Assembly: GCA_964627525.1 (NCBI GenBank)
Contig: CAZVIA010000002.1
Location: 59,262-123,261, forward strand
Direction: 5' to 3'
Source of the DNA: an uncultured Gammaproteobacteria bacterium
GTDB taxonomy: Bacteria > Patescibacteriota > Patescibacteriia > Magasanikbacterales > JBBTQS01
Length of the DNA: 64,000 bases
Of the stretch, positions 6,624-49,779 are shown piece by piece. The position numbers and the translations under genes were made by a program. Numbering within the stretch: position 1 is the stretch's first letter; every line of letters begins with the position of its first letter. Below the pieces are notes generated by a model. That model saw only the letters and a list, made by a program, of their open reading frames with translations. It ran no database searches and was not told the origin of the DNA.

Positions 6624-6693
6624 ATATGCAATAATAATGCCTTTTTTTCTAAGAAAAGTCAATTGCTGTTATAATTAAAGTATTGATTATTTA

Positions 6694-6722
6694 GGGCAAA
6701 ATTTGCTTGCCAAATTTTGCCC
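6694..6722. repeat. Palindromic element copy 1 (GGGCAAAATTTG-cttgc-CAAATTTTGCCC)
   Basis: Perfect 12-bp arms. Lies between the divergent tRNA-Glu and CarS-like genes, so it is not a terminator for either. Confidence 0.6.
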
Positions 6723-6738
6723 ATACAAAACTCTAAAT

Positions 6739-7993: not shown

Positions 7994-8317
7994 TTATTTA
8001 TTATTAGAAACCGTATAGTCTATTACTTCGGATTTCTTTGAATTATTTTTACTTAATGAATTTAATTTTTTTTCTTTTTTAGCTTTAACTAATAAGACTA
8101 ATCCTATTGGAATACATACTATAGACAGTACAGCAAAAACAACCGGCAACAACCTGAACAAATCCCATAAAAAAATTTCTATGTATGTTATTGTTGTTGA
8201 AAAAGACTTCAAAAACCAAAAAAACAAAAATGGTGGCAATGAAACAAAAAACAGCGCTGGCGGTATAATTAACAATAACAGTCCTGTTGATTTCTTTTTC
8301 TCTGTTGTCATAAACAA
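7994..8317 (-). CDS. Hypothetical small membrane protein (2 TM)
   Basis: Two hydrophobic spans with a Lys-rich tail; co-oriented and adjacent to the DUF5684 gene. Confidence 0.4.
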   Translation of the reverse strand: MFMTTEKKKSTGLLLLIIPPALFFVSLPPFLFFWFLKSFSTTITYIEIFLWDLFRLLPVVFAVLSIVCIPIGLVLLVKAKKEKKLNSLSKNNSKKSEVIDYTVSNNK

Positions 8318-8935: not shown

Positions 8936-8952
8936 ATTTTTATGTTTTATTT

Positions 8953-8985
8953 ATAGGCGAAATTTGCTGGGCAAATTTCGCCTAT
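8953..8985. repeat. Palindromic element copy 2 (ATAGGCGAAATTTGC-tgg-GCAAATTTCGCCTAT)
   Basis: 15-bp perfect arms. Relative to the other copies it carries a compensatory A>G / T>C change, which preserves the hairpin. Confidence 0.6.
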
Positions 8986-9001
8986 AAAAACCCAATTAAA
9001 A

Positions 9002-12160: not shown

Positions 12161-12454
12161 ATGGCTGGTGAAAGTAAACAGGATTGTCCTACTGTTGCGG
12201 AGTTTCTGCTACAAGAGGGGTATACAAATGCTGGAGGTCTACTTGGGCACATTGAACAAGGTGGACCAGTCAAACTTGAGACAATGCTGAACCGAGCGAT
12301 TCAGTATGGTTGGCGAGCTGGTGCAGTTGCAACAGATCAGCGAGCTGTAAAAGCCTTGCGATTGTTGGAAGATGCACAGAAAGAGCGAGGTGCTTCGTTC
12401 AGTCCGAAAGAAAAGTTCAACCCATTCTGGAGTTCTGGTGACCATGGTTCCTAG
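12161..12454 (+). CDS. Hypothetical 97-aa protein in a GC-rich self-contained cassette
   Basis: GGGAGGGGG SD, ATG at 12161, GC-rich codons, terminator directly downstream. No recognised domain (MAGESKQDCPTVAEFLLQEGYTNAGG...). Confidence 0.55.
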   Translation: MAGESKQDCPTVAEFLLQEGYTNAGGLLGHIEQGGPVKLETMLNRAIQYGWRAGAVATDQRAVKALRLLEDAQKERGASFSPKEKFNPFWSSGDHGS

Positions 12455-25642: not shown

Positions 25643-27019
25643 TTATTTTGCTTTTAGCAAAGGAGAACCCACAGCAATAATTGTAAAACCTTGTTCTTGT
25701 AAGTCTGTATAATCATTGTGCAACATTCTTCGACCATCTGCAATACAATATGGTTTTTCAGCGTGCTGTTTTAAGATTGGAGCTAACATTCTGAAACGCT
25801 GCCAATCTGTCACAATAATTGCCAAATCTGTATCTTTTAAAGCTTCTTCTTCTGTATCCACTTCAACCACATCTAACTTGTCTGGCTTATCTTGATCTTC
25901 TAATTTTGCTTTTGGATCAAAAACTCGCGCCTGCTTAACACCTTTTTCTGCCAACCATTTAAGTATTGATGGACCAGCAGAATTTCTAACATCATTTGTA
26001 TCTTGCTTAAATGCCATTCCAAAAATCGCAACTTTAGCATTTTCTAAAACAACACCTGAATCTTTTTCAATTCTTTGCAAAAAGTTTTCTAACTGAAAAT
26101 GATTTTCTTTAATTAAATCTTCTAATAATTTTGTTGGTTGATTTTTTTCATTCATTTGAAAAGCCAAAGACTTTACATCTTTTTCTAAACAACTTCCACC
26201 TGCAAATAAACTGTCGTAAAATCCCCACTCACCAAAACGCCCATCTGATCGCACAACTTTTCTTAAATTTTCAAAATCAACACCATCAAAAGTTTCTGTA
26301 AGACGACCAATTACTCCATAAGTAGACATCAAACGATCAAACAACAAAAAATTAGAAATTAACTTTCCTGCTGCAGCTTCTTTTGGACTTACTTCAATAT
26401 AAGGAGTTGTTGATTCAAAAAACCTATTATAAATTTTTCGCATTACTGCAAAATCTTTTTCATCTGTCGCACCTACAACTATTCTTGTTGGATGTGTATT
26501 TCCTTGCACAGCTTTTCCTTCAACTAAAAATTCCGGATTAGATGCTACACCAAAATTTTTCACACCAGCATTTTCCAAAGCTTCTTTTGCATAATTAGCA
26601 GTTTCAATTGGCACAGTGCTTTTATTTACCAAAACAATATACTTTGATTGCTCATTAGAATTTCTTTGTTTCATTGCTCCAGACAATTGTTCAAGCGCTA
26701 CATTATAATATTCCATATTACTTGAACCATCACCTCGTTGCGGAGTTGCCACACAAATAAAAATTGCATCAACTGTGTCTAGTTGTTTTTTTACATCATC
26801 ATAATCGTGACTAAATGTAATATGATCCTTATTATTGATCAACATATTAGCCAAACCTTCTTCAAATAAGCAAGATTCAATTTTTTCTTTGTTATTTGAC
26901 CCTAAATTTTTTGTGCGATCTTCATTAATATCAAAAACCAAAACCTCATGCCCTGAATCAGCCATTGCTGCTGCTGTTGTTGCACCCACAAACCCAGCGC
27001 CAATAAAAATTATTTTCAT
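25643..27019 (-). CDS. UDP-glucose/GDP-mannose dehydrogenase family protein
   Basis: MKIIFIGAGFVGATTAAAMA NAD-binding N-terminus with a central catalytic Cys region (GGSCLEKD). Confidence 0.75.
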   Translation of the reverse strand: MKIIFIGAGFVGATTAAAMADSGHEVLVFDINEDRTKNLGSNNKEKIESCLFEEGLANMLINNKDHITFSHDYDDVKKQLDTVDAIFICVATPQRGDGSSNMEYYNVALEQLSGAMKQRNSNEQSKYIVLVNKSTVPIETANYAKEALENAGVKNFGVASNPEFLVEGKAVQGNTHPTRIVVGATDEKDFAVMRKIYNRFFESTTPYIEVSPKEAAAGKLISNFLLFDRLMSTYGVIGRLTETFDGVDFENLRKVVRSDGRFGEWGFYDSLFAGGSCLEKDVKSLAFQMNEKNQPTKLLEDLIKENHFQLENFLQRIEKDSGVVLENAKVAIFGMAFKQDTNDVRNSAGPSILKWLAEKGVKQARVFDPKAKLEDQDKPDKLDVVEVDTEEEALKDTDLAIIVTDWQRFRMLAPILKQHAEKPYCIADGRRMLHNDYTDLQEQGFTIIAVGSPLLKAK

Positions 27020-27084: not shown

Positions 27085-27939
27085 TTATAGACCTAAAGCA
27101 ATTTCCAACATTTTTATAGCTTGCTTACTGTGACCCTGTCCTTCAAAAGCCACAGCAGCTCTTAATTTTGAGTTTGCAAAAACAATTGCTTCTCTAAGTT
27201 GTACACGCTCTTTTGTTTTTAAATATGAATCAATGCAATTTTGTGGATTTGCTGGGTCGCGCAAACATGCTTCTTTAGAATATTTATTTGCATCCTTAAA
27301 AAACAAACTCAATGCCACAAGCAATGAATCAAACTGTTTTTCAAACAAAACCGTAAGCAGTAGAGTTTCAAGATGAAATGATTTTATTCGCACATTACAA
27401 TTTCTTCGCCAAGCTTTTAAAATTTTTAAAGTTGGAATTATCAAATTATTTTGTGCACCATTAATTTCTTGTAATAAATGATTATGAATTGTTGGATTAG
27501 ATAAAATCCACTTTTGTTGTTTTTTAGGAAAATATTCTGGAATCATATACATTCCATCATCTGTAAAAAACGCTGGAATTATATCTGCTGTAAATCCATC
27601 ATCCAACTCAATTCCAATTGAATGTGCTTTTAACTCAGTTTTTACTTCTTGTGAAAAAATTTCACACACCAAACTTAGTAATTTTTTTGGTGAAATATCT
27701 AAATAAAAACTTTTGTCCAGCACCACAAAAAAATCCAAATCTTTTGGCGGCCTAATAATCGTATTCCTTATACAAGACCCTGTCACAAAACCATTTGTGC
27801 TTGATTTTTGTGTTGTGCAATAAAGTGACTGGCACAATTTTTTTATTTTTTCTTTGTGATAGTCTAGTTTTCTTTTTTCTTGATTTGTAAGTTCTAGTTT
27901 TTGTGTTAAATAGATTTTCAAAAATCTTTCTGCTGTCAT
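27085..27939 (-). CDS. cGAS/DncV-like (CD-NTase / SMODS-like) nucleotidyltransferase, standalone
   Basis: Pol-beta NTase signature GSCIRNTIIRPPKDLDFFV (GS-x9-12-DhD). Third acidic residue in an OAS/cGAS-like h-D-h-h-P-A-F context (TADIIPAFF). C-terminal helical region LKILKAWRRNCN...KSFHLETLLL resembles the OAS/cGAS hK.W...S..LE.L segment. The LicD NTase-fold alternative fits less well. Confidence 0.5.
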   Translation of the reverse strand: MTAERFLKIYLTQKLELTNQEKRKLDYHKEKIKKLCQSLYCTTQKSSTNGFVTGSCIRNTIIRPPKDLDFFVVLDKSFYLDISPKKLLSLVCEIFSQEVKTELKAHSIGIELDDGFTADIIPAFFTDDGMYMIPEYFPKKQQKWILSNPTIHNHLLQEINGAQNNLIIPTLKILKAWRRNCNVRIKSFHLETLLLTVLFEKQFDSLLVALSLFFKDANKYSKEACLRDPANPQNCIDSYLKTKERVQLREAIVFANSKLRAAVAFEGQGHSKQAIKMLEIALGL

Positions 27940-28168
27940 ATCTTTTGCTTTATCTTAATTATGTTTTTTAAACATTTCCCCGAACATTAGATAACCTTAG
28001 CTCTAAAAAACAAAAAATGTCAAGTGCTTTGTAGACATTTTTCTGCAAATTTATTGGGGTTTTTGGGATTTCTTTGAAATTTCTTAAAAAATAGTCAATT
28101 TTTAACCGACACCTTGCATAAAAATAAAAAACCTGCTAAACTTTTTTTGAAATTCAAGGAGGTGTGCG

Positions 28169-28288
28169 ATGTGCACCGCGTTCTGGCTTTGTGCGGGATA
28201 CCTGATGTTCTTCGATGAGAAGCCTCCCAAGGTGGAGGGAGAGCTTCCAATCGACGGGCAGAAGAACATCCCTGATGATGATCAGTGA
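28169..28288 (+). CDS. Putative 39-aa microprotein (hydrophobic N-terminus, acidic tail) in a GC-rich cassette
   Basis: AAGGAGG, 6-nt spacer, ATG; MCTAFWLCAGYLMFFDEKPPKVEGELPIDGQKNIPDDDQ; strong terminator 30 nt downstream. Not in the six-frame track because it is under 60 aa. Could alternatively be a non-coding RNA. Confidence 0.35.
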   Translation: MCTAFWLCAGYLMFFDEKPPKVEGELPIDGQKNIPDDDQ

Positions 28289-28317
28289 TTGCCTGACTAG
28301 GCAAGCTCTGACCCTCG

Positions 28318-28358
28318 CCCCTGTAGACGTTAACGCGCCTGCAGGGGATCTTTTTTTT
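28318..28358 (+). terminator. Intrinsic terminator (CCCCTG...CAGGGG + T8)
   Basis: GC-rich hairpin followed by eight T. Confidence 0.65.
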
Positions 28359-28359
28359 G

Positions 28360-28388
28360 AGGCAAAATTTGCAAAGCAAATTTTGCCT
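28360..28388. repeat. Palindromic element copy 3 (AGGCAAAATTTGC-aaa-GCAAATTTTGCCT)
   Basis: Perfect 13-bp arms, immediately adjacent to a canonical terminator. Confidence 0.6.
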
Positions 28389-28398
28389 ATTTAATATT

Positions 28399-29709
28399 TT
28401 ATAAAGACCAATAATCAATTCCTTGGTCTTTGAAATAATTTTTTGTAAAACAATTTCGCACATCCATAAATAATTTCGGCCCATCAGCAAACAAACTTTT
28501 AATCCACTCTTCTCCTGAATCTAAAAACTCTTTGTGTGAAGTTGCAAAAATAACCACATCAGCATTTTGACAATCATTTTTTTCACAAACTTTAATTCCG
28601 TATTCATGTTCCAACTCTTCTAAATCAGCATAAGGATCAAACACATCTACGTGTGCACCCATGTCTAATAAAATTTTGTACAACTCTGCTGCTTTTGAAT
28701 TGCGCACATCTGGAATATTTTCTTTAAAAGTCACACCTAACATCACAACTTTTGTGTCTGCAATATTTTTATTATTAGTATCTAAATAATTTTTTAATTC
28801 TTGAGCAACAAAATTTGGCATTGCGTCATTAATTTCACGCCCAGCTAAAATAACTTTTGGATCATAACCCAACTGCTTTGCACGATGAGTTAAATAATAT
28901 GGATCAACACCAATACAATGACCACCAACTAATCCTGGAGAAAACTTTAAAAAATTCCATTTTGTTCCAGCTGCCTCAATCACATCTTTTGTATCAATTC
29001 CCATTTTATGAAAAATCAAAGACAACTCATTCATAAACGCAATGTTTAAATCACGCTGTGCATTTTCAATAACTTTTGCAGCTTCAGCAACTTTGATTGA
29101 TGGAGCTTTATGTACACCTGCCAAACAAAAAGTTTTATAAACCTGTGCAATTTCTTCACAAGCTTCTGGAGTTGAACCTGAAACAATTTTTATAATTTTA
29201 TCAATTGTGTGTTCTTTGTCCCCTGGATTCACACGCTCTGGAGAATATCCAATCCAAAAATCCTGTGCATGCTTCATACCACTTGCCTGCTCAATCGCTG
29301 GAATGCAAGTTTCTTCAGTTGCCCCTGGATAAACAGTTGATTCATAAACCACAATTGAATCTTTTGAAATATGCTGACCAATCATTGTGCTAGCTTTTTC
29401 CAGCAAAGTGAGATCGGGTTTTTTGTTTTCATCAACAGGAGTTGGGATTGCCAAAATAAAAAACTTTGCTTGCTTTAAATCTTCTGGGTTTGATGTAAAT
29501 TGCGCTGTGGTTGCTTGTAAATCTGTATCACTTACCTCGCCTGTTGTATCTTGATTTTGTTTTAGTCTTTCAACTTTTTCTTTATTTATATCAAAACCTA
29601 TCACGTCAAATTTCTTTGCTATAAGAACGCAAAGTGGCAGGCCAACATATCCAAGACCAACTACTGCAATTTTTTCATTTTTTGATTGAAGTTGTTCAAA
29701 AGTGATCAT
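28399..29709 (-). CDS. Nucleotide-sugar dehydrogenase (UDP-ManNAcA/UDP-glucose dehydrogenase family)
   Basis: KIAVVGLGYVGLPLCVLIAKKF NAD-binding motif and a C-terminal UDP-binding domain. Start placed at Met19 (MITFEQ). Confidence 0.7.
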   Translation of the reverse strand: MITFEQLQSKNEKIAVVGLGYVGLPLCVLIAKKFDVIGFDINKEKVERLKQNQDTTGEVSDTDLQATTAQFTSNPEDLKQAKFFILAIPTPVDENKKPDLTLLEKASTMIGQHISKDSIVVYESTVYPGATEETCIPAIEQASGMKHAQDFWIGYSPERVNPGDKEHTIDKIIKIVSGSTPEACEEIAQVYKTFCLAGVHKAPSIKVAEAAKVIENAQRDLNIAFMNELSLIFHKMGIDTKDVIEAAGTKWNFLKFSPGLVGGHCIGVDPYYLTHRAKQLGYDPKVILAGREINDAMPNFVAQELKNYLDTNNKNIADTKVVMLGVTFKENIPDVRNSKAAELYKILLDMGAHVDVFDPYADLEELEHEYGIKVCEKNDCQNADVVIFATSHKEFLDSGEEWIKSLFADGPKLFMDVRNCFTKNYFKDQGIDYWSL

Positions 29710-29820
29710 ATTTTTGTAATTGTGTAACAACATTAGAGTACTATTTTTGGGATTTTTAGGCAAGGTTTTTTAATTGATTTATTGGGTTGACTTATTTAGA
29801 TGGATTTGATAAGGTGATCG

Positions 29821-29903: not shown

Positions 29904-30875
29904 ATGGCGCAAGTTCCTGTTGTGATGTTTCATCGAGTTGGAGATCAACAATACATGCATCATCGTGGTTTGAGACTTTCTGGAGAACACTGTCCTTTGA
30001 AAATGTTTATAAGAACCATGGAATACATCCGAGGAAATGGTTTGAATGTTATTTCGCTTTATGAATTGGTTACAAAATTGTGTTGCCAACAACTACTTCC
30101 TCCAAACAGTGTTGTACTTACTTTTGATGATGGCACTCGTGACCACTTGAAAATTGTATTGCCTATTCTTGAACAATGTGGTTTTCCAGCAACTTTTTTT
30201 GTGATGTCAGGGCCTCCTGTTTTTGGGAAAATTCCACCCACTTTTCAACTTCAGCTTATTACTGGAGATGTACACTGGGTTAAGGAGCATGGCTTGAGTT
30301 CACTTCTTGGTGCACTTGAAGAACAAAATGACCAAGAATTCACTGATTGGTGTGCCAGTGGTGCTGGAGTACCAGAAGAAAGATATATTGGTGAAGCTAG
30401 TGAAACCATTCGTAGGATAAAATACTTAATTAACTATCTTTTGCCTGCTGAACTCAAGCAAGTGATTGTGGACGCAATGTTCAAAGCAAGATTTCCAGAT
30501 ATGGATATGGAAGATGTCTGCAAACTGATGTTCTTGAGTAAAGAAGAAATTCACGAGCTTGCAGCACATAATCTGATTGACATTGGTTTTCACACAAGAA
30601 ATCACTTTAACTTAGCAACTATCGAAGATCCAAGTGTAGCTCGCACAGAGATTGTTGGAGCTTGCAGTGACCTAGGACTTGTTGGTGATTTAGCTCCCAA
30701 GCTTTTTGCCTATCCTTCTGGAGGAAAGCTGGGATATAACCTGCACCATGTAGGTATGGCACGCGCTGCATACCAGGGCGCAGTTGTGACTTGGGATCAA
30801 AAGACGTTGTGTAGTGACACCAGTAATGAATTTGAGATTCCGCGTGTGCATGAGAAGTTTTTTCCAACTAGCTAA
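29904..30875 (+). CDS. Polysaccharide deacetylase (CE4/NodB homology domain)
   Basis: LTFDDGTRDH (TFDDG motif) and PATFFV. GAGGAGG SD; GC content higher than neighbours. Confidence 0.65.
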   Translation: MAQVPVVMFHRVGDQQYMHHRGLRLSGEHCPLKMFIRTMEYIRGNGLNVISLYELVTKLCCQQLLPPNSVVLTFDDGTRDHLKIVLPILEQCGFPATFFVMSGPPVFGKIPPTFQLQLITGDVHWVKEHGLSSLLGALEEQNDQEFTDWCASGAGVPEERYIGEASETIRRIKYLINYLLPAELKQVIVDAMFKARFPDMDMEDVCKLMFLSKEEIHELAAHNLIDIGFHTRNHFNLATIEDPSVARTEIVGACSDLGLVGDLAPKLFAYPSGGKLGYNLHHVGMARAAYQGAVVTWDQKTLCSDTSNEFEIPRVHEKFFPTS

Positions 30876-30951: not shown

Positions 30952-31003
30952 CACACACCCAACGGGCTGGCCCAACAACTGGCCCGTTGTTTTTTTACTA
31001 AAA
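30952..31003 (+). terminator. Terminator repeat unit 1 (ACACACCC-AACGGGC...GCCCGTT-T7)
   Basis: Hairpin plus T7; about 50 nt nearly identical to the unit after the next gene. Confidence 0.6.
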
Positions 31004-31125: not shown

Positions 31126-32220
31126 ATGTCAGAAAAGACTCTTGATCTTTCACAATCTAATCAGCAATTGGCAACAGCTTGCTTGATTGAGCCAGCTCTA
31201 AATGAGCCTGATAAGTTGGACATGACACTACTTGCTCAAGTGCTTTTGTATAATCGCAAGAATCGTGATCCTAAGCGGTATGCTGATATTTGTGAACTTG
31301 CAGCAAATGAACTTCAACCAAGAGAGAGGGGTGAGAAAACCACTCATATTGCTCACATTCACCTACTTTTGCAAGTTGTGAATGGTTTGAGAAGACAAGC
31401 CGGACTTTGGGACTTAGAACCAGCACTTTCAACTCTTAGGATGGCATCAACAGTTGATACATTTACTACTTTTAAAGGTATTGAAGTAGTCAAGCTACAA
31501 ATAGAAATTCAGCGACAAACTGCAATGATTTATAGATTGAGGGGTAATTACGAAAGAGCCTATCTTAATCACAAAAGTGCTTCTAGACTAGCTAGGCTGA
31601 ATAAATTATTTGCTGGAGCTACTGTTTTTGACTTTTGTGCTGATGTAGATAGTGCAAATCTAGCTTTGTGTGATGGTGATGAAGTTGTTGTGAAAAAGAA
31701 CCTTGGTATACTTTTGGATTCGTATCACACACTGTTTCTTCCAAAGTTTAATGGAGATGAACAAGTTGAATACTGGCGTGTAGCTAATGCACCTATTCAC
31801 GTGCTATGGGCTCACTTTCTAGCAGGTAAATCACTTGTGGAAATGGGTGAAGGAAAAACCAGTGGAATTGTAGAATTCAAAGAGTATACTGAGATGGGCT
31901 TCTACCTTTTGCAAGATTTTCCTCTAAAACCTATTGCTGAAAGATTCACACATTGGCTTGATATACTTCAAATCATGTGGTGGTTGCGCATTTTGAAAAT
32001 CTATGAACCTCTAGCAAAATCACATGCCTTTCAACTTGTCGATGACAACAGACACCCTGATGTAGTTGCAACTGCCCTACTAATGCTGGCAGAAATTGCC
32101 ACCAAGAACCGCAGACTAGCTGATGCAACAAAGTATTTGAATGACATTATTGAGCTTGAAAGCCATAGTGCGCACGTGGTACGTGCAATTGCCAAGCGCA
32201 GATTGGAAGGTCTTGCATGA
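31126..32220 (+). CDS. Hypothetical 364-aa protein (predicted all-helical), island gene
   Basis: GGGAGG SD and GC-richer codon usage; no recognisable catalytic motif. Confidence 0.5.
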   Translation: MSEKTLDLSQSNQQLATACLIEPALNEPDKLDMTLLAQVLLYNRKNRDPKRYADICELAANELQPRERGEKTTHIAHIHLLLQVVNGLRRQAGLWDLEPALSTLRMASTVDTFTTFKGIEVVKLQIEIQRQTAMIYRLRGNYERAYLNHKSASRLARLNKLFAGATVFDFCADVDSANLALCDGDEVVVKKNLGILLDSYHTLFLPKFNGDEQVEYWRVANAPIHVLWAHFLAGKSLVEMGEGKTSGIVEFKEYTEMGFYLLQDFPLKPIAERFTHWLDILQIMWWLRILKIYEPLAKSHAFQLVDDNRHPDVVATALLMLAEIATKNRRLADATKYLNDIIELESHSAHVVRAIAKRRLEGLA

Positions 32221-32260: not shown

Positions 32261-32322
32261 CACACCACACACCCCAACGGGCCGGCTCAACAACTGGCCC
32301 GTTGTTTTTTTACTAAAAAAAA
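32261..32322 (+). terminator. Terminator repeat unit 2
   Basis: CACACACCCCAACGGGCCGGCTCAACAACTGGCCCGTTGTTTTTTT is nearly identical to 30952-31003. Repeat 1 has U.G where repeat 2 has C-G. Confidence 0.6.
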
Positions 32323-48618: not shown

Positions 48619-49779
48619 TTAATATGCTAAAAGTTTTTGAGGATTTGGATTTGATTTTGCCAACACTTGAGCAATTTTTTCTCCAGCAAAACCATCACCA
48701 TATGTTACATCTGCTTCTTGCAGTCCTTTTGCCACCTGACTTCTCACAGCTTCAACAATTTTATTTGTATCATAATCAACTGAAACAACATTAGCTGCTA
48801 ACTGACGTCCAGTTTGACGAGTTCCAATTAAAACTCCAGGTGTTCCAATAAAAGCACCCTCACGCAAAATTGAACTACTATTCCCAAACATACAAGCAGT
48901 TTTTTTCATCAAATGAAAATAAGTATTCATTGGTAGATTTTTGAAAAAATGAATTTCCGGACCTTCATGCTCTTCATGTTCACGATATTTTCTCATACCA
49001 CGCGCAACATCTTCAGAACCTGCATCTGGATTTGGCCACAACATTATTGTTGGCATGTTTAATTTTTTAATTGCATCCATTGTTTTTTTAATTTGCACCT
49101 CACCACTTCCATATTCAGATGTAACAGGATATTGAGACACAAATAAAAACGGCTTAGTAATATCAATTTCTTTACCTACACCCACAAATTTTAATTCCTG
49201 CATCGACTCTTCTTCTAAAATTCTTTTTACCTCATCCATTCTCGGACAACCAACAACATGAACGTCTTCAGGTCTTTCACCCATTTTTATAATTCTCTCA
49301 CCAGCTCTTTCTGAAGCTGGAAAATGTATGTGTGCAAATTTTGTAATTGCATGACGAATACTTTCATCAATATTTCCAGAAACCTCACCACCCATTGAAT
49401 GCGCAACAGGAATATTCATATAAGCTGCAGCAACAGCAGCTGGCAAAACTTCAAAACGATCCCCAATCACAAAAACTATATCTGGTTTTAAACGATTATA
49501 CGCGGTTGCCAACTCACTCATTCCAAGCCCAGAAGATTTTGCCATTGTAATCGGACTAGCACCTTCAATAATCATGTGCACTCTCTCATCAATTTTAAAA
49601 CCATCTTTTTCAATTATTTCAATCACCTCTCCATACTTATCTAACAAAGCAGCAGCTGCAGCAACAACTTGGATATCTAAATCAGGGTGTTTTTGAACAG
49701 CCTTCATCGCTGATTTAGCACTACCATAATTGGCACGTGACCCAATGTAAAAACAAATTTTCTTTTTTACAAACGACAT
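48619..49779 (-). CDS. neuC: UDP-N-acetylglucosamine 2-epimerase (hydrolysing), NeuC-like
   Basis: KKICFYIGSRANYGS...GDRFEVLPAAVAAAYMNIPVAHSMGGEVSG. Confidence 0.7.
   Translation of the reverse strand: MSFVKKKICFYIGSRANYGSAKSAMKAVQKHPDLDIQVVAAAAALLDKYGEVIEIIEKDGFKIDERVHMIIEGASPITMAKSSGLGMSELATAYNRLKPDIVFVIGDRFEVLPAAVAAAYMNIPVAHSMGGEVSGNIDESIRHAITKFAHIHFPASERAGERIIKMGERPEDVHVVGCPRMDEVKRILEEESMQELKFVGVGKEIDITKPFLFVSQYPVTSEYGSGEVQIKKTMDAIKKLNMPTIMLWPNPDAGSEDVARGMRKYREHEEHEGPEIHFFKNLPMNTYFHLMKKTACMFGNSSSILREGAFIGTPGVLIGTRQTGRQLAANVVSVDYDTNKIVEAVRSQVAKGLQEADVTYGDGFAGEKIAQVLAKSNPNPQKLLAY

Follow-up and report, generated by a model that had tools for sequence, protein, structure and literature searches.

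The closest described counterparts of the gene treated here are the cyclases of CBASS defence systems. CdnD of P. aeruginosa ATCC27853 (PDB 6p82), which belongs to a type III CBASS with HORMA2, Trip13 and NucC, is the top match to our nucleotidyltransferase (NTase) both in structure and by profile. The two share the GS...DxD...D site and a size of about 300 aa, but they are only about 20% identical. The NTase belongs to a bacterium with a reduced genome, where it sits in a glycan locus with no HORMA, Trip13 or NucC nearby. Type I CBASS, in which a cyclase is combined with a single transmembrane or other effector, is found around two other relatives (P0006 and P0020). These cyclases are of the same family, all SMODS, with 28-34% identity, but the type I loci of the relatives contain integrases and, besides these, S_4TM, SAVED-HNH or downstream genes of unknown kind, where our locus has a nucleotide-sugar dehydrogenase downstream. 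The nearest sequences outside the two-member clade of the NTase are two SMODS-AGS_C fusions of about 425 aa (P0024 and P0079), which are 37-38% identical over the whole NTase; their C-terminal AGS_C domain is absent from the NTase, and they sit in a defence island. To our knowledge, there is no way in which a lone cyclase acts in defence.

Two further kinds of system bear on the DNA beside the NTase. CdnE03, activated by cabRNA, and OAS and cGLR, activated by dsRNA, are enzymes of the CD-NTase fold that work with a structured viral or foreign RNA, and the binding has been demonstrated; the RNA considered here is in contrast hypothetical, host-encoded and not conserved. The Fst/par type I toxin mRNAs are structured molecules of about 200 nt that have their start codon in a hairpin, end in a strong terminator and encode a small, hydrophobic peptide whose tail is charged. 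The unit beside the NTase is not related to them in sequence, its hydrophobic stretch is too short, and we found no antisense partner for it.

The window, that is the whole stretch of 64,000 nucleotides that was analysed, comes from a Patescibacteria-like host with a tiny genome, and the NTase is located at the border of a cell-surface sugar locus (Table 1). Our best explanation, to which we give an even chance of being right, is that of an orphan CD-NTase beside a small GC-rich putative transcript and terminator block, in which the short reading frame is an unconserved ORF and not a microprotein partner. The enzyme is of a known kind, and it is the placement beside a GC-rich element that is unusual.

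Table 1. Features of the NTase and of the adjoining GC-rich unit, in window coordinates.
Feature	Position	Strand	Basis
Orphan CD-NTase (SMODS) gene, 284 aa	27085..27939	-	G54 S55, D67xD69, D119 intact
Putative NTase promoter: TTGACA (28023-28018), 18 nt, TAAGGT (27999-27994)	27994..28023	-	read from sequence, inferred
GC-rich unit, ~209 nt; small RNA or micro-ORF mRNA	28150..28358	+	GC, fold, positional counterpart in L003
AGGAGG Shine-Dalgarno (SD) site	28157-28162	+	sequence
Hairpin GGUGUGC-GAU-GUGCACC, enclosing AUG and last two G of SD	28161..28177	+	MFE, centroid structures
39-codon ORF MCTAFWLCAGYLMFFDEKPPKVEGELPIDGQKNIPDDDQ, ATG at 28169	28169..28288	+	GC3 0.68 vs ~0.2 in native genes
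Long imperfect hairpin inside ORF: AUGUUCUUC/GAAGAACAU, UCGAU/AUCGA, GAAGC/GCUUC, CUCCC/GGGAG	28195..28272	+	fold
Intrinsic-terminator-like hairpin CCCCUG...CAGGGG (28318-28347), then U8 (28351-28358)	28318..28358	+	sequence, fold
Palindrome GGCAAAATTTGC-nnn-GCAAATTTTGCC, genome-wide gene-end family	28360..28388	.	terminator-like on + strand

The nucleotidyltransferase

The earlier note, made from the sequence alone, had called the ORF a cGAS/DncV-like CD-NTase of the SMODS kind and had proposed profile and structure searches, which have now been run and agree with the call. The Pfam SMODS profile (PF18144) gives 57.6 bits, where the gathering score is 26.5, PADLOC Cyclase PDLC00823 matches residues 12-283 and thereby the full length at 3.9e-45, and NCBIfam CBASS_cyclase_b reaches 125.8 bits, which is below its equivalog cut-off of 200. 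The AlphaFold model has a pLDDT of 95.3, and a Foldseek search of the PDB ranks CdnD first (6p82, E 3e-15, TM 0.82), followed by CdnC, CdnB, DncV and cGAS, all with a probability of 1.00; the family profile of the NTase matches 6p82 over the full length at 3.8e-62. The bilobed cGAS/DncV fold, with its NTase core and C-terminal helical lobe, is thus present in a predicted model rather than in a solved structure. The GS-x11-DLD signature (G54-S55, 11 residues, D67-L68-D69), the third acidic residue (D119, within FTADIIPAFF) and the C-terminal helix (LKILKAWRRN...KSFHLETLLL) are all where they had been claimed to be, and the catalytic positions vary little, if at all, among 47 homologues. A LicD-type polysaccharide phosphotransferase (PF04991) had been named as the outcome that would speak against the call. 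We do not take the gene for one, because the best matches are SMODS and CD-NTase and because LicD, like Mab-21, gives no match even at E ≤ 10 in the Pfam scan, which lists only SMODS, NTP_transf_2 (0.066) and FIMAH (0.11). Judged by its sequence and predicted structure, the 284-aa ORF is a genuine and intact CdnD-like cGAS/DncV-like nucleotidyltransferase, which would use its GS...DxD...D site to join NTPs into an oligonucleotide signal, either cyclic or linear.

The partners of such an enzyme are missing, as the earlier note also observed. No effector, Cap2/Cap3 or HORMA/TRIP13 gene is found within ±10 kb in the Pfam annotations or by PADLOC on 10 neighbours, and the locus thus has neither the adjacent effector of a CBASS operon nor the accessory genes of types II and III. 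Three neighbours were considered as hidden effectors and rejected: the gene unk364, the TPR gene and the deacetylase gene are each without a PADLOC hit, unk364 is moreover missing from the related locus described below (L003), and the TPR gene is part of a conserved glycan block. We hypothesize that the NTase is a stand-alone cyclase, probably derived from a CBASS operon, the effector of which would have been lost or be encoded elsewhere. In the literature, we found no report of CBASS in Patescibacteria.

Relatives and genomic setting

Two protein libraries, 5.8 and 1.84 billion sequences in size, were searched for homologues, and the close relatives are confined to the NTase's own cluster (P0001) and one other (P0002). 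The sole close relative, an intact orthologue of 286 aa in L003, is 39% identical to the NTase and occupies the same syntenic slot, among neighbouring genes that are 50-79% identical. In the window and in L003 the order is a first dehydrogenase gene (DH_A), a GC-rich intergenic region, the NTase, a second dehydrogenase gene (DH_B), an epimerase and a TPR protein. Both genes that flank the NTase and the GC-rich unit belong to the UDP-glucose/GDP-mannose-dehydrogenase family, in line with the earlier siting between two nucleotide-sugar dehydrogenases, and the neighbours include, besides these, the epimerase, the TPR protein and a deacetylase. The more distant relatives of the NTase belong to defence islands of the usual sort, in which the effectors are S_4TM or SAVED: P0006 has S_4TM and SAVED-HNH as neighbours, P0024 has DUF6602, a second SMODS gene and a restriction-modification gene, and P0020 has integrases. 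A search for further syntenic relatives by way of DH_A, in genome and metagenome contigs, gave nothing but dehydrogenases from unrelated phyla, with identities of about 50-57%, and the organism's own contig was not recovered.

The genes downstream of the NTase form a conserved envelope-glycan block of DH_B, epimerase, TPR, Bac_transf and S8 protease. The NTase would have its own promoter, TTGACA-N17/18-TAAGGT; the same hexamers occur in L003 with a 17-nt spacer. This region is the best Smith-Waterman alignment between the two intergenic regions, but the alignment lacks significance, its score being reached by 65 of 500 shuffles, and the putative promoter was not picked up by a consensus scan. 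We abandoned an aligned promoter for the GC-rich element itself (TTGCAT-17-TAAACT against TTGTCA-17-TAGGCT), because TTGTCAAG of L003 fits the -35 box of the NTase promoter in the window (28018-28023) better. There is no terminator before DH_B, and the NTase may therefore be co-transcribed with the glycan genes.

The earlier note gave recruitment of the NTase to glycan metabolism as its other possibility, and one could think, from this arrangement, that the NTase is a domesticated signalling enzyme, the messenger of which regulates the adjacent envelope-glycan genes as a matter of housekeeping and not of phage defence. In both lineages it heads the co-directional string of DH_B, epimerase and TPR, with gaps of 65 nt and 49 nt and no terminator; its composition is that of a host gene (GC 0.30, GC3 0.19), no mobile-element genes are found near it in the Pfam annotations of the neighbours, and it ends right after the NTase core, without the ...FPxYG C-terminal tail of P0004-P0007. 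The glycan block does, however, occur without it: two other loci (L178 and L180) have DH_B, epimerase, Bac_transf and S8 protease in the same order but no NTase, and carry NeuB or PGI in its place upstream. The TPR gene is present in L180 as well, and in L178 three additional genes separate DH_B from the epimerase. Furthermore, DH_B has an extended -10 promoter-like site of its own, none of the neighbours has a receptor domain, and the NTase, with its 39% identity, belongs to the genes that evolve fastest in the locus, which makes it resemble a conflict gene more. We consider such domestication rather unlikely. On our preferred explanation, that of an orphan cyclase, purifying selection would have maintained the NTase over a long period at the variable edge of the glycan block, in two related Patescibacteria-like lineages. 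Its host-like composition and the intact orthologue in the same slot of L003 speak for the long residence, and the different upstream genes of L178 and L180 for the edge position.

The GC-rich unit

The unit is flanked by the convergent DH_A gene on one side and by the NTase promoter on the other. The mean GC of the window is 0.33 and that of the unit 0.53-0.58, with a peak of 0.58 (in 100-nt windows), and outside coding sequence the only places in the whole window with at least 0.5 GC over 100 nt are a tRNA-Glu and this unit. The foreign composition that had been claimed for it is thus real, and so are its coordinates and its parts, namely the AGGAGG, the 39-codon ORF, the hairpin with T8 and a copy of the palindrome, of which three further copies occur at gene ends (6687, 8948 and 33622). 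The terminator-like hairpin was missed by the consensus scan, presumably owing to its irregular loop and stem. The unit is assigned to the plus strand because of the orientation of the SD-ATG and of the hairpin with T8; a strand call from folding energy was rejected, as the preference is for the sense strand in the window and for the antisense strand in L003. L003 has a counterpart at the corresponding position, oriented alike; it too carries an SD-like site, an ATG and a terminator, and it begins about 50 nt away from the ATG of the NTase. In our reading, this stretch of foreign-like composition is a short transcription unit of its own together with a terminator block, and may be either a relic cassette or a small RNA with local structure. 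It counts against a relic that these signals have been kept in position and orientation by both genomes, although SD sites are otherwise scarce (4 of 58 genes).

In sequence, no similarity between the two units was detected. Neither matches the other in nhmmer at E ≤ 10, their best local alignment is not significant, and a MAFFT alignment is weak and without obvious structural correspondence. Compared with shuffled sequences, the full units fold with z -4.0 in the window and -3.2 in L003; without the terminator, the core has z -2.55 in the window but -0.37 in L003, which is no better than shuffled. Rfam gave nothing but noise, be it for 27900-28500 at E ≤ 1, for the whole window at the gathering score or for the L003 counterpart at E ≤ 5, and ARAGORN found only the tRNA-Glu in the window. 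Base-pairing in trans with the 5' regions of the NTase, DH_A and DH_B does not rise above shuffles, and the similarities to phages and plasmids are chance matches of 21-53 nt.

By analogy with the RNA-activated enzymes, the unit could be a structured small RNA, with an imperfect hairpin of about 30 bp, that is a ligand or a labile inhibitor of the cyclase. This would agree with a unit that is divergent from and adjacent to the NTase in both genomes, with promoters that would be back to back in L003, with the low z and long hairpin of the window core, with the tRNA as the only other non-coding GC-rich island, and with a GC3 that coding does not explain. The core of L003 does not share that stability, though, the two units correspond neither in sequence nor in evident structure, and their strand preferences are opposite. 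No such element adjoins the other related SMODS genes examined, the effector would still be absent, and we found no precedent in the literature for a host ncRNA partnered with a CD-NTase. An RNA-regulated cyclase is in our view unlikely.

The earlier note named as one possibility a minimal signalling or defence module, in which the NTase would be paired with the 39-aa peptide, its membrane-active effector or partner. Its signals for translation are a strong AGGAGG at the correct spacing in the window and a weaker GAGAGG in L003, each followed by an ATG, but the AUG and part of the SD lie inside a hairpin. The two peptides open with an aromatic-rich hydrophobic stretch and share only FW..G.Y; beyond this, one has 39 aa and a net charge of -5, and the other, in L003, has 26 aa, is basic and has a charge of +5. 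Neither length, charge nor sequence is thus conserved in the orthologous locus, and the conserved co-occurrence that had been proposed as a check is not seen, as the sole syntenic relative carries a different peptide. Of the hydrophobic N-terminus and acidic tail described earlier, the hydrophobic stretch and the charge are there, but the stretch is only about 15 residues long, and in L003 we estimate its mean hydropathy at about 0.85, below what a transmembrane helix needs. The peptide is too small for a nucleotide-sensor domain and has no Pfam, PHROG or PADLOC match, and in one annotation pipeline the ORF was called in a shorter form only, of 27 aa and with its start at 28205 (L002). An ORF of 39 codons is, by our estimate, unsurprising at about 55% GC, with a stop frequency of about 0.04 per codon. 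Codon composition fits a coding role better: GC3 exceeds GC2 in both small ORFs. Their GC3 of 0.67-0.68, against about 0.3 in the other GC-rich, SD-led and foreign-looking genes of the window, is not accounted for by our own explanation and counts against it. With a peptide that differs in L003, a hydrophobic segment below transmembrane length and nothing similar beside the other SMODS genes, the proposed pair of NTase and membrane-active microprotein is not supported, and we hold it to be very unlikely.

The same features also call to mind a type I toxin of the Fst/par or Hok kind, made from a highly structured mRNA of roughly 200 nt in which the ribosome-binding site is sequestered. Such a gene would be independent of the NTase and simply neighbour it in a variable slot. 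The size of the transcript, the start-codon hairpin, the strong terminator and the architecture of the peptide would all fit, and so would the poor conservation, as type I toxins typically show low sequence conservation. A non-exhaustive look revealed no antisense RNA gene or complementary repeat, however, the hydrophobic segment of about 15 aa falls short of transmembrane length, PADLOC, Pfam and PHROGs gave no match, and syntenic retention in two lineages would be unusual for a selfish toxin-antitoxin pair. This analogy we find highly improbable.

Conclusions

The comparison of two genomes gives no support for the NTase and the GC-rich unit as a functional pair. Such a pair is possible, and the co-location could still be functional because only two genomes carry the arrangement. 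A broader two-part unit, in which the CD-NTase would be controlled by a divergent host-encoded structured RNA (as a labile inhibitor or a dsRNA-like ligand) or by the micro-ORF, and would signal to an unlinked or non-protein receptor that is possibly glycan-linked, seems to us decidedly unlikely.

CBASS biology has a loose end in its orphan CD-NTases, which could have unlinked receptors, have roles other than defence or be decaying remnants. That the NTase is intact and syntenic in two lineages, the housekeeping enzymes of which are only 50-79% identical, and in very small genomes that are poor in defence genes, argues that it serves some use by itself. Should it turn out to signal with no linked effector, or to be under the control of the adjacent RNA, the known roles of bacterial cGAS-like enzymes would be widened.

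The nucleotidyltransferase

The earlier note saw in a 284-aa ORF a CD-NTase/SMODS-like nucleotidyltransferase (NTase) with a mini-cassette beside it, and this observation is confirmed, with every motif it listed found as stated. In a Pfam scan the protein scores 57.6 bits against SMODS (gathering score 26.5) and matches neither LicD nor Mab-21 even at E<=10, while residues 12-283 match the PADLOC CBASS 'Cyclase' model at 3.9e-45. NCBIfam CBASS_cyclase_b gives 125.8 bits, and because this is under the equivalog cut-off of 200, the NTase is a divergent member. An alignment of 47 homologues shows no variation at G54, S55, D67 and D69 and almost none at D119, and the AlphaFold2 model built from it has a mean pLDDT of 95.3. 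The best Foldseek match of the model in the PDB is P. aeruginosa CdnD (6p82, E 3e-15, TM 0.82), followed by CdnC, E. cloacae CdnD, CdnB, DncV and cGAS, and the family profile matches 6p82 over its full length at 3.8e-62. The NTase is an intact, CdnD-like CD-NTase, as the SMODS, PADLOC and Foldseek matches bear out. Its C-terminus comes directly after the core (...LEIALGL), and the ...FPxYG tail seen in relatives further away is lacking. We infer that it still makes a nucleotide signal.

By precomputed Pfam annotation, the genes within +/-10 kb are all for glycan synthesis, apart from those for a TPR protein, an S8 protease and a polysaccharide deacetylase, and PADLOC on ten neighbours together with Pfam on the unannotated ORFs gave the same picture. 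SAVED, TIR, patatin, HNH, S_4TM, Cap2/3 and HORMA/TRIP13 are all missing from this range, in agreement with the earlier reading that no recognisable effector, E1/E2 or HORMA/TRIP13 gene adjoins; the locus thus lacks the adjacent effector that defines CBASS. The NTase has presumably descended from a CBASS cyclase, with its effector lost or unlinked.

Relatives and synteny

Sampling of the family is very thin: a word-indexed search over 5.8 billion proteins and phmmer run exhaustively on 1.84 billion cluster representatives together gave one cluster identical to the NTase and a single close relative. This protein, P0002, has 286 aa and is 39-41% identical. Its locus (L003/L004, NCBI GCA_964554065.1) is syntenic with the window and has the order DH_A, a 306-nt intergenic region, SMODS, DH_B, epimerase and TPR, where DH_A and DH_B are the flanking nucleotide-sugar dehydrogenase genes. 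Neighbouring enzymes are 50-79% identical between the two loci, the deacetylase 43%, the TPR protein 42% and the NTase 39%. The NTase has a host-like composition (GC 0.30, GC3 0.19) and is an old resident, fast-evolving yet intact, and therefore under purifying selection. Judged by the names that homologues of neighbouring genes carry, the host is of Patescibacteria/CPR type.

Two more relatives were reached via DH_B (L178, 60% identity; L180, 52%), and both have DH_B, epimerase, Bac_transf and S8 protease in the window's order; the TPR gene is also kept in L180, and in L178 three additional genes separate DH_B from the epimerase. The place upstream of DH_B is taken by a NeuB or PGI gene, and NTase and DH_A are absent there. 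Since they keep the block without the NTase, the latter occupies the variable margin of a conserved block of envelope-glycan genes, where it is kept syntenically in two lineages without a linked effector. That its signal regulates these glycan genes rather than defence is a reading that suits the neighbourhood, and we consider it rather unlikely; the block persists in L178 and L180 without the enzyme.

The next-nearest NTases are SMODS-AGS_C fusions (37-38% identity) and 320-aa forms (32-34%) in ordinary defence or mobile surroundings, with S_4TM and SAVED-HNH effector genes, integrases, or DUF6602 plus a second SMODS gene near a restriction-modification gene. Another lone SMODS gene, P0048 (282 aa), is found in L176 of a CPR-like genome, with a divergent 391-aa gene 13 nt away, then an AAA+ ATPase gene, and a PPIase gene on the other side; no recognised effector is present around it in L176.

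Features of the window and of related loci
Feature	Sequence	Position	Strand	Remark
DH_B	window	25643-27019		nucleotide-sugar dehydrogenase
NTase ORF	window	27085-27939	-	284 aa
AT-rich spacer	window			~210 nt, NTase to GC-rich block
AGGAGG	window	28157-28162	+	strand opposite NTase
39-codon ORF	window	28169-28288	+	ATG at 28169
Long imperfect hairpin	window	28195-28272	+	within GC-rich block
Second hairpin	window	28277-28316	+	within GC-rich block
CCCCUG...CAGGGG hairpin, U8	window	28318-28358	+	
29-nt palindrome	window	28360-28388		directly 3' of U8
DH_A	window	28399-29763		nucleotide-sugar dehydrogenase
Palindrome copies	window	6687-6728, 8948-8989, 28353-28394, 33622-33663		gene ends
Deacetylase	window	29904-30875		SD
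364-aa ORF	window	31126-32220		SD
Terminator-like repeats	window	30958-31003, 32273-32318		46 nt, 96% identical
97-aa ORF	window	12161-12454	+	SD
Native AT-rich genes	window	7994-8317, 48619-49779		SD 5-mer
P0048	L176	10001-10849		SMODS
GC-rich patches	L176; L178	1-681; 12741-13521		
10-N gap units	L005; L006	1134-1342; 782-990		L003-type

The GC-rich unit

The window is AT-rich (0.33 GC), and its only non-coding sequences that reach 0.5 GC over 100 nt are tRNA-Glu and the GC-rich unit. AGGAGG, 39-aa ORF, terminator and palindrome copy of the proposed mini-cassette were all located, and its composition is foreign-like. Rfam, phage and plasmid collections gave no match for the unit. The palindrome, GGCAAAATTTGC-nnn-GCAAATTTTGCC, has three further near-identical copies in the window, at gene ends, and L003 showed none. 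The family probably consists of lineage-specific REP-like elements or bidirectional terminators.

At the matching position of L003, and in the matching orientation, GC rises to 0.50-0.68 (locus mean 0.41), and the stretch contains GAGAGG-N6-ATG and a hairpin with a U-rich tract after it. This counterpart, the GC peak outside coding sequence, an ORF led by a Shine-Dalgarno (SD) site in genomes that nearly lack such sites, the folding of the full window unit (z -4.0 vs shuffles) and the GC3 of both micro-ORFs (0.67-0.68) speak for a unit that is real and maintained; the GC3 of the window's other GC-rich, SD-led genes, the deacetylase and the 364-aa ORF, is about 0.3, which hints at constraint at the nucleotide level. 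As to co-occurrence of NTase and microprotein, L003 has a GC-rich ORF in the matching position, but the peptides are unlike (39 vs 26 aa, net charge -5 vs +5, only FW..G.Y in common), and no comparable element was found beside other related SMODS genes. With these differences and a hydrophobic run of about 15 residues, a module of NTase plus membrane-active microprotein is not supported, and it is very unlikely that the peptide is the partner of the NTase.

An RNA partner would suit the folding of the window unit, but nhmmer found no similarity between the two units, and without the terminator the window core has z -2.55 vs -0.37 in L003. The strand preference in folding energy also differs, and the best local alignment of the intergenic regions, not significant, is the putative NTase promoter (TTGACA-N17/18-TAAGGT). 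In L003 the last hairpin has an A-run on one side and a T-run on the other, and can therefore also serve as terminator of DH_A. Related genomes often have GC-rich patches, which reach 0.77 GC in L176 and L178, so high GC alone is no proof of an RNA gene. We hold an RNA partner to be improbable. In the window the AUG and part of the SD lie inside a 7-bp hairpin, which speaks against a conserved microprotein or RNA. An independent type I toxin-like gene is a further reading, to which we give very little weight. The most fitting description of the unit is a short transcription unit with its own terminator and a foreign-like composition, whose ORF is not conserved.

The patches in L176 and L178 are long (0.74-0.77 GC; the loci average 0.46 GC) and one spans a 299-aa gene within the glycan block; in composition, this lineage is a strong mosaic. 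In two independent L003-type assemblies a 10-N scaffold gap replaces the same 28 nt of the GC-rich unit, perhaps because the population is heterogeneous or because assembly broke off at a hairpin.

Imported-looking genes

SD sites precede 4 of the 58 genes in the window and, in L003, only the deacetylase (GC 0.53, GC3 0.61), and as both genomes are essentially without them, an SD-led ORF is unusual there. The clearest exceptions in the window are GC-richer (deacetylase and the 364-, 97- and 39-aa ORFs); two native AT-rich genes also scored an SD 5-mer. A subset of genes looks imported from a GC-richer, SD-using donor. The 364-aa ORF (GC 0.40, strong SD, only weak TPR hits) resembles a cassette that entered at a terminator, because terminator-like repeats flank it and the syntenic locus in L003 does not contain it. 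In the 97-aa ORF, a very strong SD (GGGAGGGGG) goes together with GC 0.48 and coding-like periodicity, and Pfam and PHROG gave no match.

The NTase belongs to a known enzyme family and stands in an odd place, next to a GC-rich element.
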